From Candidatus Dojkabacteria bacterium (GTDB taxonomy: Bacteria; Patescibacteriota; Dojkabacteria; B142; JAFGFJ01), in NCBI GenBank assembly GCA_016931155.1, contig JAFGFJ010000006.1, forward strand, positions 141,115 to 205,114: a stretch of 64,000 nucleotides of DNA, written 5' to 3'. Position numbers and translations under genes: made by a program. Each line of letters starts with the position of its first letter. The first letter of the stretch is position 1. Positions 39,664 through 56,909 of the stretch are shown here, piece after piece. Below the pieces are notes generated by a model. It made no database searches and was not told where the DNA came from. It saw only the letters and a program-made list of their open reading frames with translations.

Positions 39664-40455
39664 TTGGCTCATAGAAAAAGAAAAGATATGGGAAAAACAA
39701 ATACGGTTGATCTTCTTTTTGAACTGATAAAAACCAATTTTAAACTCAGGTACAACAATTCAGTACTGGGTTTTGTCTGGGTTCTTCTAAAGCCATTTTT
39801 AACATTTTTAGTTTTGTACATTGTTTTTTCCAACTTCAGGGGGAATTCGTCCATCGATAATTACACTATTTATCTTCTATCGGGAATAATACTTTTTACT
39901 TTTATTAACGAAGGAGTACTTTTTGGACTAAACTCTCTCCTTGATAAAGCAAACATTATTCTTAAAGTTAATTTCAATAAGATAATTGCAGTGCTCAGTT
40001 CGGAGATCATGGCTCTGGTAAATTTTCTGATCAATCTTCTGATTTTGTCTATCTTTATTATTTTTAATCCAGTAAACATTTCTGTTCTGAGTTTTTTTTA
40101 CTTATTGTTCATACTTTTTGTAATCTCGTTAGGATTAGTTTCAATTTCTTTGTTCTCCAGTATTCTTATCTTAAAATTCAGGGATTTGCAGAATATTGCT
40201 GAACTTGCAATGCAACTTTTATTTTATGGTTCAGCTATTTTTTATCCCGTAGAGCAAATCCCCGGGAGGTTTCAATGGCTTATTAAACTGAATCCACTCT
40301 ATAATCTGATTGATGCCGCAAGAAATGCTCTTGTGCAGGGGGAGATTATCAATACGAAAGAAGTGCTGATCATTTTTTTTGTTATTGTTTTCTTCTTCTC
40401 AATTGGGGCAATCTTCTTTTCCAGGAATGTAAAAAAGGTAGCTGAATACTTCTAA
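39664..40455 (+). CDS. ABC-2 type polysaccharide/teichoic-acid exporter permease (Wzm/TagG-like)
   Basis: 263 aa and 6 TM. The N-terminal LIKTNFKLRYNNSVLGFVWVLLKP is typical of ABC-2 permeases. Confidence 0.7.
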   Translation: MAHRKRKDMGKTNTVDLLFELIKTNFKLRYNNSVLGFVWVLLKPFLTFLVLYIVFSNFRGNSSIDNYTIYLLSGIILFTFINEGVLFGLNSLLDKANIILKVNFNKIIAVLSSEIMALVNFLINLLILSIFIIFNPVNISVLSFFYLLFILFVISLGLVSISLFSSILILKFRDLQNIAELAMQLLFYGSAIFYPVEQIPGRFQWLIKLNPLYNLIDAARNALVQGEIINTKEVLIIFFVIVFFFSIGAIFFSRNVKKVAEYF

Positions 40456-40456
40456 T

Positions 40457-41326
40457 ATGGGAAATCTATTCGAACCAAAGGTCTCAATTGTAGTAGTGAA
40501 TCTCAATGGTGAAGATGATACTTTCGAATGTGTGGACTCATTGAAAAAGATTGGCTACAAGAATTATGAAATTGTTGTTGTTGATAATGGCTCTTCAAAG
40601 AAGAATTACGAAAGACTTAAGAAAAACTTAAAAGGCGTAACAATTCTCAGGAAAGAGGAAAATCTGGGTTTTACGGGAGGCTATAATGTTGGTATAAGAT
40701 ACGCAAAGGCATCAGGTTCCAGATATGTTGCCATATTAAATAACGATACTGTGGTAGATGAAAAATGGCTTTCTGAATTTGTAAAACTTGCTAAAGAAGA
40801 AAAGAAATTTGGAGTGATAGGGTCAAAATCGTGTTACTACGGTCAAAGAGAAATTATCCAGACCGCTGGTCTTGCCTTCAATAAGTTCTGGGCTACTTTT
40901 TATGAAATCGGAAACGGTCTTAGAGATGAGGATCATTATAATGAAAACAGAGAAGTAACAGCTGTGAGTGGAGTTTCTATGCTGATGGATTTAAAAAACC
41001 CGCTAGAGGATATATTATTTGATGAGGAACTATTTCTCTATTACGAGGATGTTGATCTATGTTTGAGAATGAAGAGAAATGGTTATAAAGTGCTGTATTG
41101 TGCCAAGTCAAAAGTCTATCATAAGATTTCAAGGACAGCCAAAAAGGTGAAAGGTCTTAGCTTGTATTGGGGGATAAGGAACAGGCTTAGAGTCATAAGA
41201 AGATACTATGGTTTTATTCCATATGTCTGGGTATTTATCAGACTTTTGGTAAAGGGGGTAGTAGATTTGTCTGTGATGGATAAGGTATCAGCTAAGGCTT
41301 ATTTTAGGGGATTATGTAATAAATAA
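40457..41326 (+). CDS. family 2 glycosyltransferase
   Basis: VSIVVVNLNGEDDT, VVVDNGS and ILNNDTVVDEKWL (DxD region). Confidence 0.8.
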   Translation: MGNLFEPKVSIVVVNLNGEDDTFECVDSLKKIGYKNYEIVVVDNGSSKKNYERLKKNLKGVTILRKEENLGFTGGYNVGIRYAKASGSRYVAILNNDTVVDEKWLSEFVKLAKEEKKFGVIGSKSCYYGQREIIQTAGLAFNKFWATFYEIGNGLRDEDHYNENREVTAVSGVSMLMDLKNPLEDILFDEELFLYYEDVDLCLRMKRNGYKVLYCAKSKVYHKISRTAKKVKGLSLYWGIRNRLRVIRRYYGFIPYVWVFIRLLVKGVVDLSVMDKVSAKAYFRGLCNK

Positions 41327-41454
41327 TGAAAAATTTAGTTGAGATAAAAAATCTTTCTAAGGTGTTTGAAGTACCAAGAGAGAAAAAACAGACCTTGAAG
41401 AGCCATTTTCTGGATTTATTTAGAAGAACGAGTAAGGAATTTATACTATTATAG
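41326..41454 (+). pseudogene. 43-codon remnant of an ABC transporter ATPase (Wzt/TagH-like) N-terminus
   Basis: MKNLVEIKNLSKVFEVPREKKQTLKSHFLDLFRRTSKEFILL then stop. It parallels the N-terminus of the full wzt-like gene on the opposite strand and is coupled to GT2 by a TAATG overlap. Confidence 0.5.
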
Positions 41455-41462
41455 TAAGGAAT

Positions 41463-42668
41463 CTATTGTTCCCATTTACTACTGACTAGGATATTCCCTC
41501 TTTGTCCGTTGTGAGGAGACTTAGTATTTACAGTAAAAATGGTTCCCTTGGGATAGAAGTCATAATACTTTGTCTCACTTTCACCAAATACAACAAAATT
41601 TACAAAGTACTTCCCCGATAACAGCGATGTATTATAGATATTAAACGAAATACTTCTTTTTTCCTTGTTTATTAATATCTTTGCGTACTTTGTATTTGTT
41701 CCGAATAAGTAGAAACCAGTCTTTTCATCATATATACCCAATCCTATGTGTAGGTTCTCGACGCCCTTATTTATTTTATAATCAATTCTGAACTTTATAT
41801 TATCACCCACTGTGAAGTTGTTCCCATCTTTTTTATTCTGATCTTCTATTGCTATTTTCGAAATTCTTACTTGTCCTGTGCCAGGCCTCTCTTTTTCTGG
41901 TGATCTATTTTCTGATTTTATTTCAGATTTATTGACCAATTCATGGTAGTGAAATATTATGTCTCTCACTTCCCCTTCTTTTGCAATTTTCCCGTCCACT
42001 AGTAGAACAGCTCTATCGGAAAACTCTTCTACTTGAGATAAAGAATGAGAAACAAATATGATTGTCTTTCCCAGCTTTTTCATTTTCCTAAAGTATTCAA
42101 AGCACTTTTCTTGAAAACCCATATCTCCAACAGCCAAGACTTCATCAAGTATATATATGTCAGCATCTGCTTTGATAGCTATTGAGAACGCTAGTCTCAC
42201 CTGCATTCCAGAAGAGAAGTTTTTAATGGGAACGTCTAGAAATTCTCTGATTTCAGCGAAATCAACAATCTCATTAAATTTTTCGTTGATAAATTTTCTA
42301 GTCATTCCAAGAATTGTTCCATTCAAGTAAATATTTTCTCTAGCACTTAATTCTGGGTTAAAGCCAACGCCAAGCTCTAAGAAGGGTATTATTTTGCCTC
42401 TCGTAACTATATTTCCTGAATCTGGAAGATATATTTGTGAAATAAGTTTTAACAAGGTCGATTTCCCGGATCCATTTTTTCCGATTATGCTGATAAACTC
42501 TCCTTTGTTTATTTCGAGAGTTAATCTGTCTATTGCTATAAATTTTTTTTTCCTTATTGGCCTGAAAAGATTGAAAAATCGAGATTTTATTGTGTCTCTT
42601 TTTTCACTGACTATTTCAAAACTTTTCGTTACATTATCTATTTTAATTGCTGTTTCAGTTTTCTTCAT
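41463..42668 (-). CDS. ABC transporter ATP-binding protein with C-terminal Wzt-like carbohydrate-binding domain
   Basis: Walker A GKNGSGKSTLLK, signature FSSGMQVRLAFS, Walker B ILDEVLAVGD, plus a ~150-aa beta-rich C-terminal domain. Confidence 0.8.
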   Translation of the reverse strand: MKKTETAIKIDNVTKSFEIVSEKRDTIKSRFFNLFRPIRKKKFIAIDRLTLEINKGEFISIIGKNGSGKSTLLKLISQIYLPDSGNIVTRGKIIPFLELGVGFNPELSARENIYLNGTILGMTRKFINEKFNEIVDFAEIREFLDVPIKNFSSGMQVRLAFSIAIKADADIYILDEVLAVGDMGFQEKCFEYFRKMKKLGKTIIFVSHSLSQVEEFSDRAVLLVDGKIAKEGEVRDIIFHYHELVNKSEIKSENRSPEKERPGTGQVRISKIAIEDQNKKDGNNFTVGDNIKFRIDYKINKGVENLHIGLGIYDEKTGFYLFGTNTKYAKILINKEKRSISFNIYNTSLLSGKYFVNFVVFGESETKYYDFYPKGTIFTVNTKSPHNGQRGNILVSSKWEQ

Positions 42669-42735
42669 TAGTGGTATTTTGTATAAATTTTATTCTTATT
42701 GAAATACAGAAGTCGATTTCACCAGTATGATTATT

Positions 42736-43686
42736 TTACTCTGATAATTTTCCTTTAATTTTTTGTAGAGAATTAATGACTTTCGTCAGACCAGTTTTTT
42801 GAGATACCTTAATTATGTGTTTATTTTTACTAAGAATTTCAGATAATTGCTCATTTTGATTCCTTAAAGAAGTTAATTCTTCTTGCTGTTCTACTGTTTT
42901 CCTTTCTAGATTATGCAAAAAAGTTAGCCTTTCTGTGAGATCGGGAGTTTCACTATAGCTAAAGATATTTTTGGGAATTCTACTTAAAGAGCTACGGTTA
43001 GAAGTCGTCAGATTAATGTAGTTTTGAAAAGAATCCTCGGCAAGCAGATACTGCTCTTTATAATATTTTGAGAATATTCTATCTTCAATATAACTTGGAT
43101 CTAAACCTTGAGATTGGATTGCGTCAAGCAAAGAATATAGTCCACGAAAAATTACAAAATCTCTTGGAATTGGGAAATTCCAAGTCCACTCATAATCGAT
43201 GTTATAAATAATTTTTCTATTTATTGTGAAATTATCGAGGTTCAGATCAAGAATTCCTGGTTTAATCCATGCAGTCTCTTCATTTAGGTGATGGCCAAAA
43301 ATATTATTAAACTCCTTATTTATAATGGGAGGTTTTTTTATCTGATCCAATTTGTTAATAATCTCTTCAAGATAAAACTTAAATAGTTCATCTATATCTT
43401 TATAATCTCTTTGTTGAACACTCCTATACATTCTATTAAGTAGATTCTCCCCATTTATATATTTAAAAATTACTCTGTTATCAACTATGTTAGGTTTTAA
43501 TATTTGAAAGGGGAGATGGTAACTCGAAAGGAGTTTGTATTTGTTGTAAAAACTTCTTAGGAATTGTAGAGATGAAGGGAATGCAATTTTGTGTACAAGT
43601 AGGGATGTGCCATTACTAACAAAAGCAGTCATTAATCTAAACTTTTCCTTTCTATTTTGGTTATGTCTTACGTATAAAACTTTCAT
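42736..43686 (-). CDS. hypothetical protein with C-terminal coiled coil
   Basis: 316 aa. No motif recognised. Sits in the glycan locus. Confidence 0.45.
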   Translation of the reverse strand: MKVLYVRHNQNRKEKFRLMTAFVSNGTSLLVHKIAFPSSLQFLRSFYNKYKLLSSYHLPFQILKPNIVDNRVIFKYINGENLLNRMYRSVQQRDYKDIDELFKFYLEEIINKLDQIKKPPIINKEFNNIFGHHLNEETAWIKPGILDLNLDNFTINRKIIYNIDYEWTWNFPIPRDFVIFRGLYSLLDAIQSQGLDPSYIEDRIFSKYYKEQYLLAEDSFQNYINLTTSNRSSLSRIPKNIFSYSETPDLTERLTFLHNLERKTVEQQEELTSLRNQNEQLSEILSKNKHIIKVSQKTGLTKVINSLQKIKGKLSE

Positions 43687-43695
43687 ATAACTTAC

Positions 43696-44586
43696 TTATT
43701 TCTTAATACTAATTTGAGACTTTTTTGCTACGATTAGAAATGCGTTAGAAAATATGTCAAAATACCCTGATTCAATTAATTGCCTTGCGACCCTTGCCTC
43801 ATTAAATAGTTCTGTTCTGTTGGTAGAATGTTTGGATGGATATATTCCTGCCTTCGGAAGAAAATTATTTGTGGGCAGATACTGGTCACTAAATATTTCA
43901 TCAGGAAAGTGATAGTGAGGTAGGGGATAATAGAAAAAGATATCTGAAAATCCTGTATCCTTGAGCATTTTACTGATTTCATCTTTACTGTAGGTTTGTA
44001 TGCCGTTATGTTTTGGGTACCCCTCGATACTCTCAAAAAACCCTACAGTGTGATCCTCTGGAGCTCCAGCCCAGTATTTTAGTCCAAACTTATTTTCTAT
44101 GGCAAGAATAAACTCACCATTTGTCTTCATAAGAGAACAGATTTTTTTGAGTAGCGTTAAGGCTGGATTTTTTGTTTTAATAAATAACCCTGAATATTCT
44201 AAGACACCGATAGCAGTGATAAAATCATACTTACTATCCGTTTCATATTTCATGACGTCGATGGGGAAAACCTTTAAATTTTTTAACTTTTTATATCTTT
44301 CTTTTATGATTTTTGCTCTTCTATCTGAAATTTCAATACAATCTACATGTTTCACTCTTGAGGTAAAAAGTCCTGTCAGTGCTCCACAGCCCCCGCCAAT
44401 TTCAAGCAAATTACCGCTTGAATGGAAATCATACCAATTAAGTAAGTTTTCTCTTCCTGGTGACAGATGAGCTATGAAAGGCCAAATCCCTGTTCTAATG
44501 AGATTATCCCTCTTTCGCTGTGATCCAACAGATTCCAGTAAAGCTTTTTCCACTTCATCCCCATCTGAATAAACCATAGTATTCAT
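43696..44586 (-). CDS. class I SAM-dependent methyltransferase
   Basis: LEIGGGCGALTGLF (motif I), CIEIS, and a typical fold length. Confidence 0.7.
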   Translation of the reverse strand: MNTMVYSDGDEVEKALLESVGSQRKRDNLIRTGIWPFIAHLSPGRENLLNWYDFHSSGNLLEIGGGCGALTGLFTSRVKHVDCIEISDRRAKIIKERYKKLKNLKVFPIDVMKYETDSKYDFITAIGVLEYSGLFIKTKNPALTLLKKICSLMKTNGEFILAIENKFGLKYWAGAPEDHTVGFFESIEGYPKHNGIQTYSKDEISKMLKDTGFSDIFFYYPLPHYHFPDEIFSDQYLPTNNFLPKAGIYPSKHSTNRTELFNEARVARQLIESGYFDIFSNAFLIVAKKSQISIKK

Positions 44587-44677: not shown

Positions 44678-47600
44678 CTATATACCATTTAACTCACTGA
44701 AGGAGTTATTGTATCTTACTCTTTGCGTTGTGAATATATTTTGATCGGAATAAATTATTACTGGTCCTCCAGTTTGTTCATTGTATTGTGGAGTTATAGT
44801 CTGACCGGGGTTAACTCTTCCATCAAAGATAATAACGCCTTGAACCGTGATTATTACAATCGCTGTGGAATTAATCGATGGATTCCCAATAAGAATCCAT
44901 GCCTCTCTTATAACGCCACCCCCGTCACTGTCGTCATACCATGTATAGAACTGTTTCTTGTTTAATTTATTGTTATCAATAGATTTTGTTTCATTAAAGG
45001 AGTTGATATATCTGACTCTTTGTGTCGCATATATGGGTTGCGTACTAGTTACTACTATTGAACCTGTACAACATAGCTCATCCCATTGTACTGAGTTGCT
45101 ACTATTCGCATACACATTTATTACCTTATCGGGTTGTCCTGGAATTCTTAATGTGACCGATGTGTTTGAATCATTAGGATTGCCTATTAGTATGTATGCT
45201 TCTCTATGAATGCCTCCATTTTCGCTGTCATCGTACCAAGGGAAAAAGTGATTACTTTCTATATCTGAATTAGTTACAGCCATTATTTCGTTGAATGAAT
45301 CCATAAATTTAACTCTTTGAGAAGAATAAATATTTACTGGTATACCAGTACTTTTTTCTACAGCAGTTATCTTTACAGGGCCACCTCTTTGTTCGTCAAA
45401 TTGAAAACAAGTGCTTTCTCCGGGGGATGCAGACTGTGTATGTAATATAACTTGTCCGCTTGTATTTTTGAACTGAACTGTAACATCAACGTTTGCAGAA
45501 ACAGTTTCTGGTATTCCTGCGATGATCCATGCCTCTCTTACGACTCCATCGTCACTATCATCATACCAGGGGAAGTACAGCAAATTGGCTAACTCACTTG
45601 AAGGGAAACCCGTGATTTCTTCAAATGATTCGTTATACCTTACCCTTACCGAAGAGTAGATTGGTATACCGTTAGTACTGTTAACAACAATTGGTCCTCC
45701 GGACTGTTCATTAAACTGTGGAGTGATTCTTTCTCCTGGGGCTAACGTTTGATCTATTTCCAAGACACCTTTGTACCAAACCTCTATACTAGCAACTTCA
45801 GCTTGGCTTTGGTTTGCTATTATAAGCCATGCTTCTCTTGGTATACCAATGTCACTGTCGTCATACCATGGGAAGTAGTATTTTGTATCAAGATTTCTTT
45901 CAGTATATCCTACTAAGGAGTTGTCCAATTGCAGGAGCCCGTAACCGGTTTGTGTATCAAACCCTGATGATGCTACATCTTGTGCACTGCTCCTTAATCT
46001 AATATTAATATCTATTGGTGTTATGTTCGGGTGGATACTTTTCATGAGTGCAACCGCTGCACTCACCTGAGGTGCGGCAAAACTTGTACCAATTACTGTT
46101 GTAGGTGAAGTGTTTGAAGTGAAGGCATTGAAAAGGTTTACATTCGTTTCATCTGAACAGTTGTTTTTATTGGGATAGCATGAATAAGATTGTGATGCAA
46201 TTTGGGGTCCACTATCTCCAACAGGGGCAACAAGATCCAACTCGTCTCCATAGTTTGAGTAACTTGCACGGTTGTCATTCGCATCTGTCGCTCCGACTGC
46301 TATTACATTTGGAAATGAAGCAGGGAAGTAGTTTGCAATATCCGAGTTGTCATTTCCTGCCGCAGCTACAACAACAACTCCGGCATTGACAGCGTCATTA
46401 ATTGCCACTTGCATCATAGGGTCAGTCCCGACTCCTCTGAGGCTCATGTTTATAACATCAGCACCATTTGCTACAGCATATTCAATAGCCTGTGAAATTA
46501 CGAAAGAATCAGCAACTGTCCTGTAGTCTTTGCTTGAGTTTGAACACGTAAGATCAAGATTCCCGGAAGCATCCTGGCACATTGATCTGTCATTCGGATA
46601 AAAAACTTTAATTGGCATGATGCTTGCATTGTGTGCTATTCCAATTACCTTGTTTGGTGCAGTATCACCTGTTCTCCCCGCTAGAATTGTTGTAACAAGA
46701 GTGCCATGTCCATAGTCATCATTTGCATGGTCGATTTTGGCAAGCTCATTTGCATTACAGTCATTGGCAGGATTTCCATCAATAGCTCTAAGCATGCAAA
46801 AATAATCCTGCACGGCATCATATGGACTTACAATATTTACACCACTTAATTCTGAGGATTGTGAATATTGCCTTTCATAACCTTTATAACTGCCGTTTAC
46901 GAAGGTACCATCTTGTGTATTATTTGTTGGATACTCAAGGTAGATTCCATTAAATTTTCCAACAGTATAGGAGTTATCATTTCCAGCGTCATATACATAG
47001 TTTTCATAGGATGCCCCTGTATCAAGAACAGCAACAACCACGGAGGGGTCGCCTCCACAGGAGTTGTCACTTGTACATCCTCCCATTTCTTTCCATGCCT
47101 CAGGAAGTTTGGTTTTTTCAGCTGTCCAGTGAGTAGCAGTATCATAGTCGCTAGGGATAGATCTTTCAGGGTCAGTATTGTTCCAGCTCTCAGTTTTGTA
47201 AATATAGATTGGCTGAGGATTAGTCTCGGGAGCCACAAGAAGAATCTCTCCTATGAGTTGATCTATTTTTGAATTGTCGACCTTATAGATTATTTTATTT
47301 CCGAGTTCTGCTAAGCTCTCTACACCACGTGACAGTGTTAGTAATTTTTCTTTGGTGAGTGCGTTCGATTGGGAAGAGTTGAGTGCTACCCGTGCCTTTG
47401 TTCCATCAATAATGTAGTTTCTATTGTCTATTAAATTGTTCCTTTTAGCATCAGCTGATCGAAGATTGGAGTTTAGTGGTTTCATTTGGACTGCACGAGA
47501 AGCAACAGTTTCTAGTTGATTGTAGATTCTTCCAGGACAGGCTGTTGCCGCAAGATCTCTGTGTCCGTAGAGTCCAGTTCCGCTTTTTGGGTCACCACCT

Positions 47601-48637
47601 TGCCATACTGCATTGAAATTGTTCAGTTGGGATAAAGCAGATATGAGTTTCGTGAGAGCTTCCATTGAGGCCTGTGTGGGATCCTGCGAGACATAGTTCC
47701 CAAGGATTGAGATTCCTATGCTTCCGGTGTTTGGGACTGCATGAGCACCAACAACTCCGTTTCCTCCAGATCTGCCTTCATAAATATTTCCATACGGATC
47801 AATCATGTAGTTGTAGCCAACATCAGTCCAGGTTCCTTTGCTCGGATCAGTGCAGTTTGGCCATGAACCCGAGTTATCTGAACATCTGTTGTAGTGATAA
47901 TTATAAACTGCCATTACCGTGTTTTTTGGATTTGCCATGTCAACACTTGTTGCTGTGTGATGAACAACTATGCGGTTAACATTTGCGATCGTCGGAGCCC
48001 ACGGGCTTGCTGTAGGAGCTCCCCATTCTTCTCTTGTAATGAGATCGAACCCCATTTGTGAAAATAATTTTTCCTTGTAAGCTCTTTCTGCCTGAGTGCT
48101 TGCAAATTCCTCTGGTATAGAAAAGGAAGTGTCTGAAGTGCTGTTGAATTCATATTTGCTGATAATAAATTCTTTTTCTCCATCGTAATAGAACTCTATC
48201 TCTTTAACTCCTTCTGAAAATATGAACAAATCAGAAACACTGTTCTTGCTTGTATCAAAGGAAGTGTCGTCTCCCATAAATACATCTTCGCTCTCAATCT
48301 TGAGGTACTTGGTAAAAGTATCATCTCCTTTTTTTACTCTGACTATTATTCCTTCAATATTTCCAGAGATGGAGAAGCCGTAGTAGGTTTTATCGAGGGT
48401 TTCAATTTTTGTTGGTGTGCTCCCTGAGAGGAAAATTCCTGCCTTTTGAATTAAGCCTGCTTCTTCGTATGCTTCGGGATCAGAGAGATTTGTACCTCCC
48501 ATTTTCGGGAAAGAGGAGTCTTCCGCATTTACTTTCTGAATTGGAGCAGGGGAGAAACTCAATGTCAGTACGAAGGTCAGAAAGATAATGAACAGATGTT
48601 TTGTTTTTTTTCTGGCTTCGAAAAAAGATTTATGCAA
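44678..48637 (-). CDS. secreted multidomain protein: PGRP/Amidase_2 N-acetylmuramoyl-L-alanine amidase + subtilisin-like S8 peptidase + four ~100-aa C-terminal repeats
   Basis: Signal peptide. Amidase_2: VVHHTATS, GYNYMIDPYGNIYEGR, GAHAVPNTGSIGISILGNY, ACPG. S8 triad: VAVLDTGAS, HGTLVTTILAG, GTSFAAPQVSAAVALM. Then four repeats each beginning [YF]FPWYDDSDxGxxREAWI. Confidence 0.8.
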   Translation of the reverse strand: MHKSFFEARKKTKHLFIIFLTFVLTLSFSPAPIQKVNAEDSSFPKMGGTNLSDPEAYEEAGLIQKAGIFLSGSTPTKIETLDKTYYGFSISGNIEGIIVRVKKGDDTFTKYLKIESEDVFMGDDTSFDTSKNSVSDLFIFSEGVKEIEFYYDGEKEFIISKYEFNSTSDTSFSIPEEFASTQAERAYKEKLFSQMGFDLITREEWGAPTASPWAPTIANVNRIVVHHTATSVDMANPKNTVMAVYNYHYNRCSDNSGSWPNCTDPSKGTWTDVGYNYMIDPYGNIYEGRSGGNGVVGAHAVPNTGSIGISILGNYVSQDPTQASMEALTKLISALSQLNNFNAVWQGGDPKSGTGLYGHRDLAATACPGRIYNQLETVASRAVQMKPLNSNLRSADAKRNNLIDNRNYIIDGTKARVALNSSQSNALTKEKLLTLSRGVESLAELGNKIIYKVDNSKIDQLIGEILLVAPETNPQPIYIYKTESWNNTDPERSIPSDYDTATHWTAEKTKLPEAWKEMGGCTSDNSCGGDPSVVVAVLDTGASYENYVYDAGNDNSYTVGKFNGIYLEYPTNNTQDGTFVNGSYKGYERQYSQSSELSGVNIVSPYDAVQDYFCMLRAIDGNPANDCNANELAKIDHANDDYGHGTLVTTILAGRTGDTAPNKVIGIAHNASIMPIKVFYPNDRSMCQDASGNLDLTCSNSSKDYRTVADSFVISQAIEYAVANGADVINMSLRGVGTDPMMQVAINDAVNAGVVVVAAAGNDNSDIANYFPASFPNVIAVGATDANDNRASYSNYGDELDLVAPVGDSGPQIASQSYSCYPNKNNCSDETNVNLFNAFTSNTSPTTVIGTSFAAPQVSAAVALMKSIHPNITPIDINIRLRSSAQDVASSGFDTQTGYGLLQLDNSLVGYTERNLDTKYYFPWYDDSDIGIPREAWLIIANQSQAEVASIEVWYKGVLEIDQTLAPGERITPQFNEQSGGPIVVNSTNGIPIYSSVRVRYNESFEEITGFPSSELANLLYFPWYDDSDDGVVREAWIIAGIPETVSANVDVTVQFKNTSGQVILHTQSASPGESTCFQFDEQRGGPVKITAVEKSTGIPVNIYSSQRVKFMDSFNEIMAVTNSDIESNHFFPWYDDSENGGIHREAYILIGNPNDSNTSVTLRIPGQPDKVINVYANSSNSVQWDELCCTGSIVVTSTQPIYATQRVRYINSFNETKSIDNNKLNKKQFYTWYDDSDGGGVIREAWILIGNPSINSTAIVIITVQGVIIFDGRVNPGQTITPQYNEQTGGPVIIYSDQNIFTTQRVRYNNSFSELNGI
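44681..45895 (-). repeat. four tandem ~100-aa protein repeats (FPWYDDSD...REAW...PG...GGP...QRV(R/K)...SF.E) of unrecognised family
   Basis: Repeat boundaries are about 45593-45895, 45266-45592, 44966-45265 and 44681-44965. Conserved positions are W-Y-D-D-S, REAW, PG, E(Q)xGGP, QRV and SF.E. Confidence 0.6.
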
Positions 48638-48780: not shown

Positions 48781-50964
48781 CTACCATCTTCTTAGATTTC
48801 TGATGATTTGAACGCCAGTCCTAATGAAAGAATGAGCAGGTTTAATCTTCTCTACTACCCCAAGAACTTTATCTAGTACTTTGTACCTGAGACGTTCAAG
48901 GTTCCTTTTTTGAATGGAATGCCCCTTAACATCTTTATAAAGTGATTCCTGCAAAAGTGTAAAATCATTATTAATTATTTTAGAAACACCAAGAAAACGC
49001 GTGTAGATTTTATTGTAGACTTCCTTATATTTTTCTATCATTTCTTCCAGGCTTGTAATTTTTGTACTGTCCAGATTTTTATATATTTGTCTTAACATTT
49101 TTCTATCTTTATCTATATCTAAGAGCAATCTTTTAAGATTCTTATCTGTTTCGAATGTCAGACCAAATTTATGCTTTTTTATTCTTGATCCAATTGCTCC
49201 AATATTTCTACCAATAGCTGGGATACCCAGGCTTACACTTTCCGAAAGAGTAAAGCAAAAAGACTCTGGAACTTTTGTGGGGAAGATGGAAATATCAACT
49301 TTATATTTTTCTATTAGTTTTGAAGGGTCAGAATTTGAGTACGAATCACTTGTATAGTGTATCCCTCTTTTTAGGCCTTTTTGTCTCAAATATCTTTTTA
49401 CTTCTGGATCAACGATGCCTATTAAATGCCAGGAAAATCTGTTTCTTAATTTGGTATCTGCGATTAGATTTACGAAAGTCTTGAGACCTTTTTGAAACGA
49501 GCATGGTCCAATATAGGCAATGCTTAGTTTTTTCTTTTCATGTTCAAGATTCTTGTTGGATTTTAGTAATTTTATGCCATGTTCAATTACTATTTGCTTC
49601 GTGTTTATATTTAAGACCTCGTTGTATTTCTTATAAAGATACTCTGAAGGGTAAATTATCAAATTTAATTTGGAAATTAGATTTTCTATATGACTTTTAA
49701 AACTAGAATCATTTACTTTGGAGAGAAAACCCTTTTTTGTATGTTCAATAAGTTGTTCTGCACTTGAAATTAGAAGAACATCATGTGCAGTAAAAACCGC
49801 TTTAATCCCAAGCTTTTTGTGAATACCAAGAAGGTTGATGTTTGCGTTTAGCAAATGATGAAAATGAATTAGTCCAATATTAAAAAATCTGCAAATACTT
49901 GTTATTACTTTTTCTTGAAATATTTCGTTTGCTTCATTCGTCTCATTTACTAAACTAGTGTTTAGTATTAACTTTCCTTCGGAAAAAATGTCTACAAAGA
50001 TATGATCGTTTCTGATTGATAGTGTAATAAAATTTATAGTTTTGTTCCCGTCAATTAGATGCTGAATATGAACTTGTGTTCCGCCAATCGATTCCTCAAC
50101 GTGCTTAACAAAAAGAACGTTTTGAGATTTCCTATTTAATTTTAATTTTTTGCAAAGAAAACTGGCAATTGTGGTTTGTGCATCAAGTGGATCCAGTTTA
50201 ATGTATTTATTAATATGTTTTTGGAAGTCCGGGTGTTTGTCTAATAACTTCCGCATTTTTTCTTCTGAGAAGGATTTGCCGGTCTGGAAACTGACGTTGC
50301 CTTTATGGTATATAAATGTTTTTGTATCGGCAACATTGATATAACCGGCCTTGATTGCTCGCATTGAGAAGTCATTTTCTTCACCATATCCTTTTCCAAA
50401 TGTTTCTTCATCAAAAAGCCCGACTTCTGTGATCACCTGTCTTTTGATATACATACAAAAACCTATAGCGGTGGGGATTGAAAGGATTTCATTACTTGAA
50501 GACTTTTTGGCTATATCCGACATATCTTCTATTTCAAAATCTTTTGGGAGTTCATTGTTTGTGTTTTTATTGGGGAGCGATAAGATTGAGGCATTGTTGC
50601 TCATTGGTGTGACTGTTGCAATTGAATCACTTTTATACGCTGTGATTATGAGATTTTGCAACCATCCCTTTGTTACTTCAGTATCACTATTGAGAAGTAC
50701 TACATCGTTCTTTGTAAGGGTCATACCTCGATTACAATTGCCTACAAAACCCAGATTTTTCTTATTAAAGTAGACTTTGACATTAGGGTGGCTTAGGCTC
50801 CCTAGATACTTTTTAACTCTTGAATCGGGGCTTTTGTCATCTATTAAAATTAGTTCGTATAGCTCAGCTGGAGTATTACATATGACGCTGTTCACACATT
50901 TCATCAGATACTCGTAGGCATCATAGACAGGAATTATAATAGATACTTTAGTTTTTACACTCAT
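48781..50964 (-). CDS. bifunctional glycosyltransferase (N-terminal GT2, C-terminal GT4/group-1)
   Basis: N-terminal VSIIIPVYDAYEYL...LILIDDKSPD...LLNSDTEV (GT2). C-terminal ESFCFTLSESVSLGIPAIG (Ex7E motif of GT4). Confidence 0.75.
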   Translation of the reverse strand: MSVKTKVSIIIPVYDAYEYLMKCVNSVICNTPAELYELILIDDKSPDSRVKKYLGSLSHPNVKVYFNKKNLGFVGNCNRGMTLTKNDVVLLNSDTEVTKGWLQNLIITAYKSDSIATVTPMSNNASILSLPNKNTNNELPKDFEIEDMSDIAKKSSSNEILSIPTAIGFCMYIKRQVITEVGLFDEETFGKGYGEENDFSMRAIKAGYINVADTKTFIYHKGNVSFQTGKSFSEEKMRKLLDKHPDFQKHINKYIKLDPLDAQTTIASFLCKKLKLNRKSQNVLFVKHVEESIGGTQVHIQHLIDGNKTINFITLSIRNDHIFVDIFSEGKLILNTSLVNETNEANEIFQEKVITSICRFFNIGLIHFHHLLNANINLLGIHKKLGIKAVFTAHDVLLISSAEQLIEHTKKGFLSKVNDSSFKSHIENLISKLNLIIYPSEYLYKKYNEVLNINTKQIVIEHGIKLLKSNKNLEHEKKKLSIAYIGPCSFQKGLKTFVNLIADTKLRNRFSWHLIGIVDPEVKRYLRQKGLKRGIHYTSDSYSNSDPSKLIEKYKVDISIFPTKVPESFCFTLSESVSLGIPAIGRNIGAIGSRIKKHKFGLTFETDKNLKRLLLDIDKDRKMLRQIYKNLDSTKITSLEEMIEKYKEVYNKIYTRFLGVSKIINNDFTLLQESLYKDVKGHSIQKRNLERLRYKVLDKVLGVVEKIKPAHSFIRTGVQIIRNLRRW

Positions 50965-52519
50965 GGGTATTAATTTTAAGTTGTTTTAGACTCCTATTAT
51001 ATTGAATTAGCATAACAGAATTAAGTACATATCCACTATGAGTCTCTTGTTCTATACATATAGTTTCGCTTGCTGGCAGATAAGAACTTTCAGCCAGTAT
51101 AAAATAATCATTATAAGGACTGTTATTGTATCTGATTTTATCTCTTTCCAGGATTGTAGCAACAAAAGCTGGCTCCAGGTGATTAATAATGTTTCCTTCT
51201 GAGGTGTCATATAGTTCAACGGGAAACATGATTTCTCCTTTCGCCTTTTTGTCTATTTGTGATTCGAACTTATAATATGATGCAGTTGTAATGTAGACTC
51301 TATCCCAAGTAAATAGGCTTTCCTCTCCCGTAGAAAAAAAATAACCATTGAGAAAAATTACGAATAGTATTACCCAAGTCAAAATATTTACTTTTTGGGT
51401 TTTAAACACAATTGACCATATTCCGATTGCCGAAAGAATATATACGTAGGGAATTAAATAAAGTAAAAATCTTCTATCATTCCAGTTGTACAAGAATACC
51501 CAGAAGATAACAGTGAAGAAAAAAAATAAAAAAATATTTAGACAAAGAACCCTGTGATTATACTGTTTTAACAGAATATTTATAAAGCCAATGGCTAATA
51601 GCAGCAAGAGTGGTATTCCAAATATACTGATGGCACCTGCCAGATAAAACAAAACAGAATTTGCGTGGGGAATAATTAACTCTAATTGCTTAACATTAGT
51701 ATAAAGAGGATTCCTGAATAAAAGAAATTTATATAAAAACCATGGTCCTGTAGTTATAAGGATAATCTCAGTATGGAAAAAAATCTGTTTTATGAATAAC
51801 TTTATACTTTTCTTGTCTTTTGCTTTGTTCTTAATTACTTGTTTTAAGAAGAAATCAGTAACTAATACTAATTCGTAAATTAGGATAAGGAAAAATGAAA
51901 AATTCTGAAAAGAGGTTGATATGCATAAAAACAATATAGCAAAATTACTTTTTCCCTTTATCAAAAATAGAACAGCCAGGCAAATAAATAAGATTGCATA
52001 GTAATCAGATAAAATGAAATTACTAAAGTTTTGCATCGTAAAGTTGCAGAAAAAAAGTATACTAACTGCGGAAGTTATCGCAAAAAGTACATTTGTTTTT
52101 TTAAGTTGAATTTTCCTGCCAAAAACTTCAATTGTTTGTGTCTGTTTCTCTTTTGCGGAGAATCTCTTTAGTAACCCATCAATGCATGCCCACAAGGTAA
52201 AAGTTATCCCTGCAAAAACCATTTGGTTTAAGAGAGGAAGCATTCTCAGTGTATTGACTTCTGAGAGTGCTCTAATAATAAGAGGAAGTCCGGGATTTCT
52301 AAAAGAAATTGTTGAGTTCTCTCCAAATCTTAGACCATTAGCAATCCAATCAAATCCATCTGACGTGAAGTATTTATAAGTCCTTAAGAATTCATTATCA
52401 GAATTTAAATTGGTGATCAGGAAAAATTTGGCGATTAAAATAACGACCGCACTGAGAGCGAATAAGAACAATAAATGTTTTTTGGAATTTTTTTTGAGTA
52501 GCTGATTAAGTCTGCTCAT
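50948..52519 (-). CDS. polytopic membrane protein with C-terminal soluble domain, possibly GT-C glycosyltransferase or polymerase-like
   Basis: 523 aa with more than 10 TM helices and a ~120-aa C-terminal non-membrane domain. A TSDGFDW acidic motif lies in the first loop. Architecture-based call only. Confidence 0.4.
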   Translation of the reverse strand: MSRLNQLLKKNSKKHLLFLFALSAVVILIAKFFLITNLNSDNEFLRTYKYFTSDGFDWIANGLRFGENSTISFRNPGLPLIIRALSEVNTLRMLPLLNQMVFAGITFTLWACIDGLLKRFSAKEKQTQTIEVFGRKIQLKKTNVLFAITSAVSILFFCNFTMQNFSNFILSDYYAILFICLAVLFLIKGKSNFAILFLCISTSFQNFSFFLILIYELVLVTDFFLKQVIKNKAKDKKSIKLFIKQIFFHTEIILITTGPWFLYKFLLFRNPLYTNVKQLELIIPHANSVLFYLAGAISIFGIPLLLLLAIGFINILLKQYNHRVLCLNIFLFFFFTVIFWVFLYNWNDRRFLLYLIPYVYILSAIGIWSIVFKTQKVNILTWVILFVIFLNGYFFSTGEESLFTWDRVYITTASYYKFESQIDKKAKGEIMFPVELYDTSEGNIINHLEPAFVATILERDKIRYNNSPYNDYFILAESSYLPASETICIEQETHSGYVLNSVMLIQYNRSLKQLKINTHECKN

Positions 52520-52847
52520 TGCTAATTAAATAGGGCTTTTATCATTATAGATTCAATTTCTCGTAAGATATTAGGTATATTATTCCTAATATTTTCTGTT
52601 TGCAATTTCCGGTTCTTGGTTAGTAGACGTATAACAACACTGCCTAGGAAGGCATTTTGTATTTCTAATGACTTCCAAAGGCAATTTACAATTTAGCTCA
52701 ATATGTCCACTCCTCATATGATATCCCATCAGATCAATATTTGTCGGGTTTTCGAGTTTACTCTAAACGATATTGCGACGTTGACATTACCATTTTAATT
52801 AAATACTATTCTTAAGAATTTCGCCAACTCCTTAAATTTAGAGACTA

Positions 52848-53591
52848 ATGGGAAATCTATTATCAATAATCATTCCAGCGTGGAATGAAGAAAATACTTT
52901 AGAAAAACTGGTTTCAAAGGTTAGGAAAATACGTCTTCCAGATGGAATTGAGAAGGAAATTATAATAATAGATGACTGCTCGACAGACAGGACGTTAGAG
53001 ATAATAAAGAATCTCGGGGAAAAGCATAAAGAGATCAAAGGACTTTCAAACTTAAAAAACAGCGGAAAATCGCAAACCGTAAAGAAAGGTATCCTTGCTT
53101 CAAGTGGTGATTACGTTGTTATTCAGGACGCAGATTTAGAATATGAGCCGGAAGAAATTCCTGAGATGCTTAAACTGTTGATAGATAAAGAATACGATGC
53201 CGTATACGGAAACAGATTTGGAAAGAAGAATAAGGTCATTTACTGGCAGAACTATTTTGGAAATAAAATGTTGACAGTCTTCTCAAATATCTTTACTTTT
53301 CCGAAACTAAAAACGTGGATACCGGATATGGAGGTCTGCTATAAATTAGTGAGAGGAGATGTAATGAGACAGATAGCAAAGATGATCGTATCGACAAGCA
53401 GGTTTGGACTCGAACCAGAAATTACTGCAAGACTTGCCTCATATAAATCAAGGGGAAAAAGAATAAAACTTGGCATACATCCTATTAGCTATTATCCGAG
53501 ATCAATTCAAGAAGGGAAGAAAATGAATGCGCTCAAACACGGATTTGAAGCACTGGTAGAAATTATAAAGTTTAATCTTCTTAAGAATTAG
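52848..53591 (+). CDS. GT2 polyprenyl-phosphate sugar synthase (DPM1/GtrB-like)
   Basis: LSIIIPAWNEENTL, IIIIDDCSTDRT and VVIQDADLEYEPEEI are typical of dolichyl/undecaprenyl-phosphate mannosyl/glucosyl transferases. Confidence 0.8.
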   Translation: MGNLLSIIIPAWNEENTLEKLVSKVRKIRLPDGIEKEIIIIDDCSTDRTLEIIKNLGEKHKEIKGLSNLKNSGKSQTVKKGILASSGDYVVIQDADLEYEPEEIPEMLKLLIDKEYDAVYGNRFGKKNKVIYWQNYFGNKMLTVFSNIFTFPKLKTWIPDMEVCYKLVRGDVMRQIAKMIVSTSRFGLEPEITARLASYKSRGKRIKLGIHPISYYPRSIQEGKKMNALKHGFEALVEIIKFNLLKN

Positions 53592-55271: not shown

Positions 55272-55634
55272 TTGAAATATTCCAACAAAAAGGGTATTAT
55301 CCGAATCCGTATATCTTTATTCTATAAGTTAGCCAACAAAACAGTGGGTCAGAAAATTGTTGATGCAGGAAAATGTGACTACTGCAGAGATAGAAAAAAA
55401 GCAGTTTACTACACAGGACTATATTCTCAAGATGAGGATTTAATGGAAATACACTGCAATACTTGCAGGGCATCCTGGGAGGCGGATGGCACTCCTAGGG
55501 CAATACCATCACAATCAAAATTGGAGCAGTTGGGAGTGTTTAGTGAAGTTGTAGAAAATAGTTTGCCTTTTACTCCAGGAACCAAAGGTGAATGGTTTTG
55601 CAATTATGTGGGATCAGCAGAAGCTTTGGGTTGA
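55272..55634 (+). CDS. hypothetical zinc-ribbon-like protein
   Basis: CDYC...CNTC pairs spaced about 25 aa apart. Weak; may not be expressed. Confidence 0.3.
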   Translation: MKYSNKKGIIRIRISLFYKLANKTVGQKIVDAGKCDYCRDRKKAVYYTGLYSQDEDLMEIHCNTCRASWEADGTPRAIPSQSKLEQLGVFSEVVENSLPFTPGTKGEWFCNYVGSAEALG

Positions 55635-56909
55635 CCTAATCTTTTGATCCTTCTGTATTTTAGATGCAAATATCCAATACCCAAAAATCAATCCAGCCGT
55701 TACAGACAGCACCCCTAATTGTACATTGACAATTTCCCCGATACTCGAATGATACTGGCTTATCAAAAATATTTGTGCAACTATGGCTATAGTTGCCACC
55801 ACTACGTGCCCTCTTTTGTTGATTGCTATGAGGTAGCTGTGGAAGATATTAATAAAAGAAAGCATTACCATAGCTAGACCAAACTTTCCTATGTATTTGG
55901 CAGTTTCTTTGAAAGAATCACCGTAAAGAAGCCTTACCATAAATTCAGGGAAGAAAACATAGAGTAGTAAAACCGAGGCAACAGCTAAAGTGGCGACCAT
56001 CAATACTGAAACAAAGTTACTTTCGTAATTGCTACCTTTGTTTTTTGCCTTTACGGTAGCCGGGATAATGGCATTTCCAATGCTTGCAGAAAGAAAAAAT
56101 ATTACCCGTCCAAGAATTGAGGTGCTTGCATATATTCCTGATTCGTGGTCTGTCAGATAATGTTTCGCCAGAATAACATCAGCAATCAGAAAAATATTAA
56201 TTGCTGAAGACACAAGAAGTATTGTGAAAAATTCTTTTATATCAAAACTGATTTTTATTTCTTCAATTTTTTCCTTGATTATTTCTTTTATACTGAATAG
56301 TGCATATAATAATGAAACGATACTCCCGGCTACGAGACCTGCTAGAGCACCTGGTGTTTTGAATCCTTGAGTTACTAAAAGCGTTCCTATAAACAATCTA
56401 AATAAAATCTCTATCACATATGCGATAGCGAGTTTTTTGTATTTCTCCAGTCCAAGAAGAACACCAAATAGAATTGACTTCTCAGTCATAAACAGCAGAT
56501 AGGCAAGAATTATTAAATATGACGACGAAGATTCTATTCTCAGGAATTCTTTTAATGAAGGGATCAGGAATATCATTAGTATTCCGATCGCAATTGTTAT
56601 CAGAAAAACAATTTTGCTGAGATGAATTATGAAATACTTCATCCTGTCCTTTTCATTTCTGGAAGCAAGGTCAGATATGTTTTTCGCTGAGAATACTTGT
56701 AAGGCTGTGGCAGGAAGTGTGATGACATAGGTGAGTGAAGCAAGAGCTACAAAATTTCCATATTCAGTGGTTCCTAAAAGGTTTCCAAGGATCAATTGAA
56801 ACAGGTAAGTCCCGAAGTTAACTATCATGGTAGCGGAGAAGAGAATTGCACTGCCTCTGATTAGAGTGTTTGATTTTAGAGAATTTATTTTCTTGAAAAT
56901 TCTGTTCAT
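55614..56909 (-). CDS. oligosaccharide/polysaccharide flippase (Wzx, MOP superfamily)
   Basis: 431 aa, about 12-14 TM, with a Wzx-like N-terminus (NTLIRGSAILFSATMIVNFGTYLFQLILGNLLG). Confidence 0.7.
   Translation of the reverse strand: MNRIFKKINSLKSNTLIRGSAILFSATMIVNFGTYLFQLILGNLLGTTEYGNFVALASLTYVITLPATALQVFSAKNISDLASRNEKDRMKYFIIHLSKIVFLITIAIGILMIFLIPSLKEFLRIESSSSYLIILAYLLFMTEKSILFGVLLGLEKYKKLAIAYVIEILFRLFIGTLLVTQGFKTPGALAGLVAGSIVSLLYALFSIKEIIKEKIEEIKISFDIKEFFTILLVSSAINIFLIADVILAKHYLTDHESGIYASTSILGRVIFFLSASIGNAIIPATVKAKNKGSNYESNFVSVLMVATLAVASVLLLYVFFPEFMVRLLYGDSFKETAKYIGKFGLAMVMLSFINIFHSYLIAINKRGHVVVATIAIVAQIFLISQYHSSIGEIVNVQLGVLSVTAGLIFGYWIFASKIQKDQKIRSTQSFC

Follow-up and report, generated by a model that had tools for sequence, protein, structure and literature searches.

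The protein and its C-terminal repeats

The window analysed here, a stretch of 64,000 nucleotides from contig JAFGFJ010000006.1 of a Candidatus Dojkabacteria bacterium (G+C content 36.7%), carries on its - strand (44678..48637) an open reading frame (ORF) encoding a secreted multidomain hydrolase of 1319 amino acids (aa). This protein is identical to NCBI MBN1915824.1, annotated as 'S8 family serine peptidase [Candidatus Dojkabacteria bacterium]', and is also present on a 25-kb Logan contig. Its gene is embedded in a surface-polysaccharide locus (39664-44586 and 48781-53591). The C-terminal 401 aa (44681-45883) consist of four tandem repeats of about 100 aa which, in the interpretation that we rather favour, would form a probable single-chain pseudo-tetramer of ASRAH type targeting the attached enzymes to the cell wall.

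The protein successively comprises a probable signal peptide, an Amidase_2 domain, a Peptidase_S8 domain and the four repeats, all encoded on the - strand. The probable Sec signal peptide (aa 1-38, 48524..48637), whose cleavage site (...KVNA/ED) was read by eye, precedes by some distance Amidase_2, an N-acetylmuramoyl-L-alanine amidase domain (aa 219-370, 47528..47983; PF01510, E 3.6e-17), a region that also matches endolysin/amidase families of PHROG. The subtilase domain Peptidase_S8 (aa 532-900, 45938..47044; PF00082, E 1.3e-37) is directly followed by the repeat module. Two stretches have no Pfam match. The N-terminal one (aa 39-218, 47984-48523) has no relative among the 202 family proteins compared. 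The middle one, of about 160 aa (aa 371-531, 47045-47527), is common only to close S8-containing relatives when the same 202 proteins are compared by phmmer, and may be a subtilase pro-region or a linker domain.

The original prediction, made by reading the letters of the window, had announced four tandem repeats of about 100 aa at 44681-45895, diverged at the DNA level. The four copies are indeed present and map to 44681-45883. They include repeat 1 (aa 919-1018, 45584..45883), repeat 2 (aa 1019-1128, 45254..45583), which has a 10-aa insertion in the region of the β3-β4 loop, and repeat 3 (aa 1129-1227, 44957..45253), the most divergent one, in which the PGE turn is missing and CCTGS replaces GGP. 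Repeat 4 (aa 1228-1319, 44681..44956) ends with SFSELNGI, right after which the protein stops. All the motifs that had been quoted, i.e., FPWYDDSDxGxxREAW, PGE/PGQ, GGP and QRVRYxxSFxE, were found. An alignment of the four copies, which had been proposed as a check, reveals a statistically significant similarity, with pairwise Smith-Waterman scores of 122-220 versus 26-28 ± 5 for 500 shuffles (z = 21-35). The copies share 36-46% identity at the amino acid level and 51-56% at the nucleotide level. Repeat detection on the DNA retrieves only short patches of 24-33 nt, spaced by 297-333 nt, which indicates that the copies have diverged, as had been anticipated. The linkers between the repeats are very short, and the repeat is absent from every other ORF of the window.

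Copy number, circular permutants and predicted structure

Relatives of the module were recovered only by a module-length profile and an exhaustive search. A profile of six repeats, compared by HMMER with 1.84 billion cluster representatives (clusters at 50% identity), delineates a family of 1193 clusters at E < 1e-3, including 573 at E < 1e-30. Word-indexed homologue searches with repeat profiles returned one match for one of the profiles and none for the profile of 64 repeats.

Among the best 150 of the 1193, 131 carry exactly four repeats and seven carry eight, always arranged as two blocks of four. Three copies were found in seven others, which make up most of the remainder and some of which begin or stop within a repeat and may be fragments. 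Furthermore, the S8 peptidases P0194, P0195 and P0196, the last of which is complete on its contig, harbour only two C-terminal repeats (a dyad), and such proteins might form a four-domain unit by dimerising. The module itself can be C-terminal, internal, N-terminal or doubled in its relatives.

Repeats located inside one protein are 46-58% identical, versus 32-38% for repeats at the same position in different proteins, and the best match across proteins is the same repeat position in about 58% of the cases. The higher identity within proteins therefore points to concerted evolution or recurrent re-quadruplication. These sequence comparisons suggest that the copies have been repeatedly homogenised or re-duplicated, the number four being held constant. 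Thus, the statement that the copies are old is only partly retained: they have diverged, but their closer relationship within each protein argues for homogenisation or re-duplication.

About 36 of the approximately 165 four-repeat proteins are circular permutants. In these proteins, repeat 1 counts only about 77 aa and is devoid of its first two strands (YFPWYD...WILVGNP), and a C-terminal tail of 21 aa (EYWFPWYDsxsMxTxiLvGrP) corresponds to the two strands missing in front. With these strands shifted from the start of domain 1 to the opposite end of the chain, the two termini would have to come together within one sandwich, and this meeting of the chain ends argues in turn for a closed four-repeat assembly. 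The protein of the window is the non-permuted form, because its chain ends directly after the SFSELNGI of repeat 4.

The AlphaFold2 model of the whole module (404 aa, 41 sequences) has a predicted local distance difference test (pLDDT) of 91.9 and a predicted template modelling score (pTM) of 0.90, no segment being below pLDDT 50. It contains eight strands per repeat, β1 being broken by a bulge, which supports the description of the repeats as beta-rich; they are also, as stated, placed after the catalytic domains. As the pTM reaches 0.90, the placement of the four domains relative to one another is confidently predicted, which would be unexpected for beads on a string; in this model, the tetrad is one rigid body. 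The model of a single repeat, built from an alignment of 6 sequences, is also a sandwich, with uncertain terminal strands (pLDDT 81, pTM 0.69). A beta-propeller-like or P-domain reading was rejected, because each repeat is a full eight-stranded sandwich and the fusion partners are too diverse. Taken with the permutants and the constant copy number, this model makes it highly probable that the four repeats constitute one closed four-domain unit.

Foldseek searches of the PDB with the whole-module model retrieve no equivalent of the whole module (TMq <= 0.2). The only whole-module structural match found is the BFVD entry Q6XLX4 (Foldseek E 1.9e-10, TMq 0.62, 435 columns, 12% identity). This 525-aa protein, FirrV-1-C4, comes from Feldmannia irregularis virus a, a phaeovirus of a brown alga, and the match extends over all four domains.

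Likeness to the ASRAH superfamily

Only one PDB entry spans a complete repeat of the whole-module model: 1nc7, i.e., TM1070 from Thermotoga maritima, which matches a single repeat with a Foldseek probability of 1.00 (template modelling score, TM, of 0.60 over 112 columns, 17% identity). The single-repeat model gives only weak PDB matches (E >= 0.015, TM < 0.5), including Ena3A, C1q-like heads and the carbohydrate-binding modules (CBMs) of families 22, 35 and 36, these latter with E 0.07-0.2 and TM 0.42-0.49.

TM1070 is an ASRT orthologue that is tetrameric in its crystal, the walls of its cleft coming partly from the dimer interface (PMC2739507). It belongs to the ASRAH superfamily defined by De Souza, Iyer and Aravind (2009, Biol Direct 4:25; PMC2739507), a name that our literature search found used in this sense only in that paper. 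The superfamily is marked by an eight-stranded sandwich of about 100-125 aa, whose first strand contains a conserved Trp and whose second strand ends with a near-invariant Asn, just before a tight turn; each unit was proposed to have its own cleft, lined by strand 2 (PMC2739507). Secreted ASRAH domains exist either as dyads or as tetrads, the latter joined to an N-acetylmuramoyl-L-alanine amidase, and their binding of sugar or peptidoglycan is a prediction (PMC2739507).

Both hallmark residues are found in the repeats described here. The Trp (W6, in FPW or FTW) is present in 85% of 501 repeats and in all four copies of the window, and the Asn (N24) in 96% of these 501 repeats. Repeats 1, 3 and 4 of the window keep this Asn, and repeat 2 has AGIP at the corresponding column. 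In the AlphaFold2 model, this Asn (N27 of the module) closes the strand 19-27 (REAWLIIAN). Other near-invariant positions among the 501 repeats are G62 (99%), E88 (99%), P63 (97%), R79 (96%) and D8 (91%).

The 1319-aa protein thus resembles the published amidase-tetrad family in being secreted, in joining four beta-sandwich domains in tandem, each of about 100 aa, to an N-acetylmuramoyl-L-alanine amidase and in having the strand-1 Trp and the Asn at the end of strand 2. The published family was likewise predicted to be hetero-tetramer-like and to bind peptidoglycan or sugar. However, its tetrads were described as 'always fused to an amidase' and as coming mostly from Chloroflexi, whereas the present tetrad also follows an S8 protease and comes from a bacterium of the candidate phyla radiation (CPR). 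The family described here also differs by its 1193 clusters, its many other partners, its eight-copy forms and its circular permutants. In the same way, the repeats share the eight-stranded sandwich with TM1070 (1nc7) and ASRT (2ii7; Pfam DUF1362/ASRT), and the four fused repeats would mimic the ASRT tetramer. In contrast, ASRT proteins are cytoplasmic single-domain homotetramers with a SHEshChhN ligand signature, instead of the xxxWILVxN of the repeats, and ASRT was proposed to be a metabolite sensor, versus a proposed targeting role for the repeats. Fold, hallmarks and architecture together make a relationship of the repeats with ASRAH likely.

Catalogues of domains contain little that corresponds to the repeats. 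No Pfam-A or NCBIfam family covers aa 901-1319, single repeats likewise being without a match at E <= 10, and PHROGs include no match for the repeat module. The repeats also attract matches of the Pfam families DBB, Daz, PLipase_C_C, Enas and GH30C, which we regard as noise, being short, sub-threshold or driven by repeat summation. Sequence searches of the PDB with profiles of 4, 25 or 64 sequences provide no genuine match to the repeats; those to de novo Ig and 'Bagel' designs are spurious beta-hairpin matches. The only Pfam family touched is DUF5719 (PF18986), matched over the repeat by five of 41 family members, the best being P0062 (48.2 bits) and another P0155 (31.2 bits), for a gathering cut-off of 26.2 bits. 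DUF5719 is also the top match of the family consensus. These matches span only positions ~48-135 of the 319 of the profile, i.e., a short hairpin, and the window protein and its single repeats have no DUF5719 match at E <= 5-10. The architecture of DUF5719 differs from that of the repeat module; we suspect that it is the Pfam model of an actinobacterial family of ASRAH-dyad lipoproteins. A literature search found no paper on DUF5719.

The repeats had been presented as an unnamed, probably novel domain. They are unnamed insofar as Pfam, NCBIfam and CAZy-type families do not match them, but 'novel' is an overstatement considering the fold match with TM1070/ASRT and the ASRAH tetrad-amidases described in 2009 (PMC2739507). 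Secreted ASRAH tetrads on amidases, with predicted sugar binding, have been known since that date (PMC2739507), and the present work extends this concept. What is new is how large the family is and that it occurs in CPR, together with the partners beyond amidases and the eight-copy forms. The use of circular permutants as evidence of ring closure and a confident model of the whole module, which has no solved match in the PDB, are also new.

Fusion partners, possible function and genomic context

No fewer than 15 catalytic or binding domains, unrelated to one another, accompany the module. The commonest single partner is Peptidase_S8, found in 12 of 55 scanned proteins and in 20 of 202 by phmmer. 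Glucosaminidase domains are present in 5 of the 55 proteins and in 10 of 41, Peptidase_M23 domains in several proteins and Amidase_2 in five of the 202 (the window protein, P0006, P0070, P0077 and P0139, the last together with SpoIID). GH5 cellulase and mannanase domains were found in one protein each, and phosphoesterase, CAP, GSDH, beta-helix, Ig-like and PD40 beta-propeller domains are scattered. The partners are biased towards enzymes cutting peptidoglycan or polysaccharide. Such varied partners and placements indicate an autonomous module. Fusions to Amidase_2, Glucosaminidase, M23, SpoIID, GH5 and S8 make carbohydrate or cell-wall targeting, already put forward in the original prediction, the best reading that can be drawn from these sequences.

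By analogy, the module can be compared with the SLH, CWB2, LysM, SH3b and choline-binding repeats and the CBMs, which are also non-catalytic repeat modules appended to autolysins or proteases; recognition of peptidoglycan or of a secondary wall polymer encoded nearby would be plausible in both cases. The known wall- or sugar-binding modules (CBMs of CAZy present in Pfam, SLH, LysM, SH3b, CWB2, choline-binding) have no profile match over aa 901-1319. Unlike these classical modules, the four copies of the tetrad would form one obligate unit.

We therefore propose the following scheme only as a model. Four eight-stranded beta-sandwich domains of ASRAH type (ASRT/TM1070-like), joined in one chain, would pack as a closed and rigid pseudo-tetramer, reproducing within a single chain the homotetramer of stand-alone ASRT. 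This would be a portable, non-catalytic targeting unit of secreted enzymes, in uncultivated lineages with walls of Gram-positive type (CPR, Actinomycetota). It would bind a glycan of the cell wall, either peptidoglycan or a polysaccharide of the wall, for instance the product of the Wzm/Wzt, glycosyltransferase and methyltransferase genes flanking the window gene. In the 1319-aa protein, the tetrad could retain the muramoyl-alanine amidase and the subtilase at the wall, or guide them there. Binding of glycan or peptidoglycan by the tetrad is predicted with odds that we put slightly above even. Observations cover the repeats and their constant number, the permutants, the confident model of a single body, the likeness of fold with TM1070 and the variety of fusion partners; the closure of the ring in atomic detail, the equivalence with the TM1070 tetramer and the nature of the ligand are inferred.

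Several observations weigh against this scheme. No HMMER-level similarity (E <= 10) links the repeats to ASRT (PF07100), 1nc7 or 2ii7, whether the query is a single repeat, the family consensus or a profile built from 4, 25 or 64 sequences. The basis of the ASRAH assignment is therefore a Foldseek match, only one in number, with the shared hallmarks and the architecture. That match has an E-value of 1.2e-2 and its TM of 0.60 is moderate; with the single-repeat model, derived from a shallow alignment, 1nc7 is not among the top 50 Foldseek matches. The published amidase-tetrads of Chloroflexi were compared with the repeats through their description in the literature. Furthermore, the CAP, GSDH and beta-propeller partners are not wall hydrolases, and two relatives from Thermoleophilia are encoded outside glycan clusters.

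These non-glycan partners (CAP, GSDH, PD40 propellers) would also be consistent with the module being a scaffold for protein-protein interaction or self-assembly, involved in S-layer or surface-protein docking or in enzyme oligomerisation, rather than a glycan binder. Stand-alone ASRT works via interaction with a rhodopsin and, in later work, with DNA. Proteins of about 400 aa that are almost only the module exist (P0005, P0085, P0093), and the fold weakly resembles Ena appendage subunits and C1q/TNF-like heads. However, the partners found repeatedly have peptidoglycan or polysaccharide as their substrate, no conserved partner gene adjoins the family members in the neighbourhoods of three relatives, and several of the proteins reduced to the module may be fragments, since they begin or stop within a repeat or lie on contigs of 1-3 kb. 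Such a scaffold is thus improbable, even if it is the best of the alternatives.

A second possibility is an array of beads on a string, in which four independent CBMs would be kept for their avidity. Tandem repeats C-terminal to catalytic domains and sandwiches weakly resembling CBM35/36/22 would fit this proposal. Furthermore, one cleft was proposed per ASRAH unit (PMC2739507), so that up to four sites may exist. However, 138 of the 150 proteins are fixed at four or eight copies, circular permutants exist, the linkers are very short and the pTM of the whole tetrad is unexpected for flexibly linked domains, which leaves such an array with little probability. The selection for multivalency that had been deduced from the four copies is contradicted by the same facts, i.e., a copy number quantised at four or eight, the permutants and the rigid unit (pTM 0.90). 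The four copies would be kept because together they make one fold, and not as a variable string of independent binders.

The repeats could also have no relationship with ASRT/ASRAH and be a genuinely new beta-sandwich family, in which case the match with TM1070 would reflect convergence on a common fold. This would be consistent with the lack of similarity to ASRT detectable by HMMER, with the Foldseek values of 1nc7 and with DUF5719, the only Pfam family touched, matching over a short hairpin. However, 1nc7 is the sole PDB entry matching over a whole repeat, with a probability of 1.00, and the Trp and Asn hallmarks, the strand count, the organisation in tetrads or dyads and the amidase fusion are shared. 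The authors of the 2009 study likewise obtained only borderline PSI-BLAST and HMMER values and needed profile-profile methods (HHpred) to establish the link with ASRT (PMC2739507). Independent origin is therefore very improbable.

Finally, beta-sandwich or jelly-roll domains are common C-terminal to subtilases, S8 is the commonest partner and the module lies directly after the S8 domain in the 1319-aa protein, but an intramolecular accessory of the subtilase acting in folding, stability or autoinhibition, in the manner of kexin/furin-type or fervidolysin-type P-domains, is the least credible explanation, because at least 15 unrelated partner domains and an N-terminal, internal or doubled placement denote an autonomous module.

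Returning to the wall-targeting pseudo-tetramer, a more ambitious version of it would make the tetrad a distinct and uncatalogued wall-binding module, closed like velcro into a single-chain pseudo-tetramer open to circular permutation and serving as a principal device for attaching secreted lytic enzymes to peptidoglycan or to a polysaccharide of the wall in CPR, Thermoleophilia and related uncultivated lineages. This broader statement is doubtful. If true, it would define a new CBM family with a quaternary-like architecture and no whole-module match in the PDB. Dojkabacteria, like other CPR bacteria, combine a tiny genome with a lifestyle believed to involve attachment to other cells. The large lytic enzymes that they secrete may serve to remodel their own wall or to attack that of a host, and it is the targeting module that determines the site of action; for the tetrad of an episymbiotic CPR bacterium, this site could be the wall of the host. 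The module is widespread (1193 clusters), comes almost wholly from uncultivated organisms and is missing from Pfam; a family model would improve the annotation of many 'hypothetical' metagenomic proteins. Furthermore, the fixed four-fold organisation and the circular permutants provide a clear and testable structural hypothesis.

The sources named for the family are Dojkabacteria, SR1, Thermoleophilia, Gaiellales and other Actinomycetota, nearly all metagenomic, this taxonomic breadth being based on a few source names. In a collection of reference genomes, a single-module query retrieves only one related locus, in a metagenome-assembled genome of candidate division SR1 (JACMQI010000037.1, 5001-5660 of the extracted locus). 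The match ends within a few bases of the contig end; SR1 is a lineage that recodes UGA. Relative P0004 (1194 aa) carries eight repeats along with an M23 peptidase and, at its C-terminus, a PEP-CTERM sorting signal. As PEP-CTERM is usually associated with exopolysaccharide-producing Gram-negative bacteria, the module may extend beyond walls of Gram-positive type.

Within the surface-polysaccharide locus of the window, the gene of the 1319-aa protein is surrounded by co-directional genes on the - strand. Downstream are found those of a methyltransferase (43696-44586), of a 316-aa protein with unassigned function (42736-43686) and of an ABC ATPase of Wzt type carrying the glycan-end-binding domain Wzt_C (41463-42668). 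Upstream are those of a glycosyltransferase fusion, GT2+GT4/GT1 (48781-50964), and of a 523-aa protein with unassigned function (50948-52519). Genes on the + strand encode a Wzm-like ABC-2 permease (39664-40455) and two GT2 enzymes (40457-41326 and 52848-53591), and a Polysacc_synt flippase is encoded further away on the - strand (55614-56909). The joint occurrence of Wzt_C and a methyltransferase suggests that this CPR bacterium exports, through an ABC transporter, a glycan capped at its chain end. The downstream genes are possibly linked functionally, as a wall-polysaccharide pathway, to the gene of the 1319-aa protein. In the same way, the gene of the S8-dyad relative P0196 (8001-10178 of its extracted locus) adjoins genes for GT2, UDP-galactopyranose mutase (GLF) and methyltransferase.

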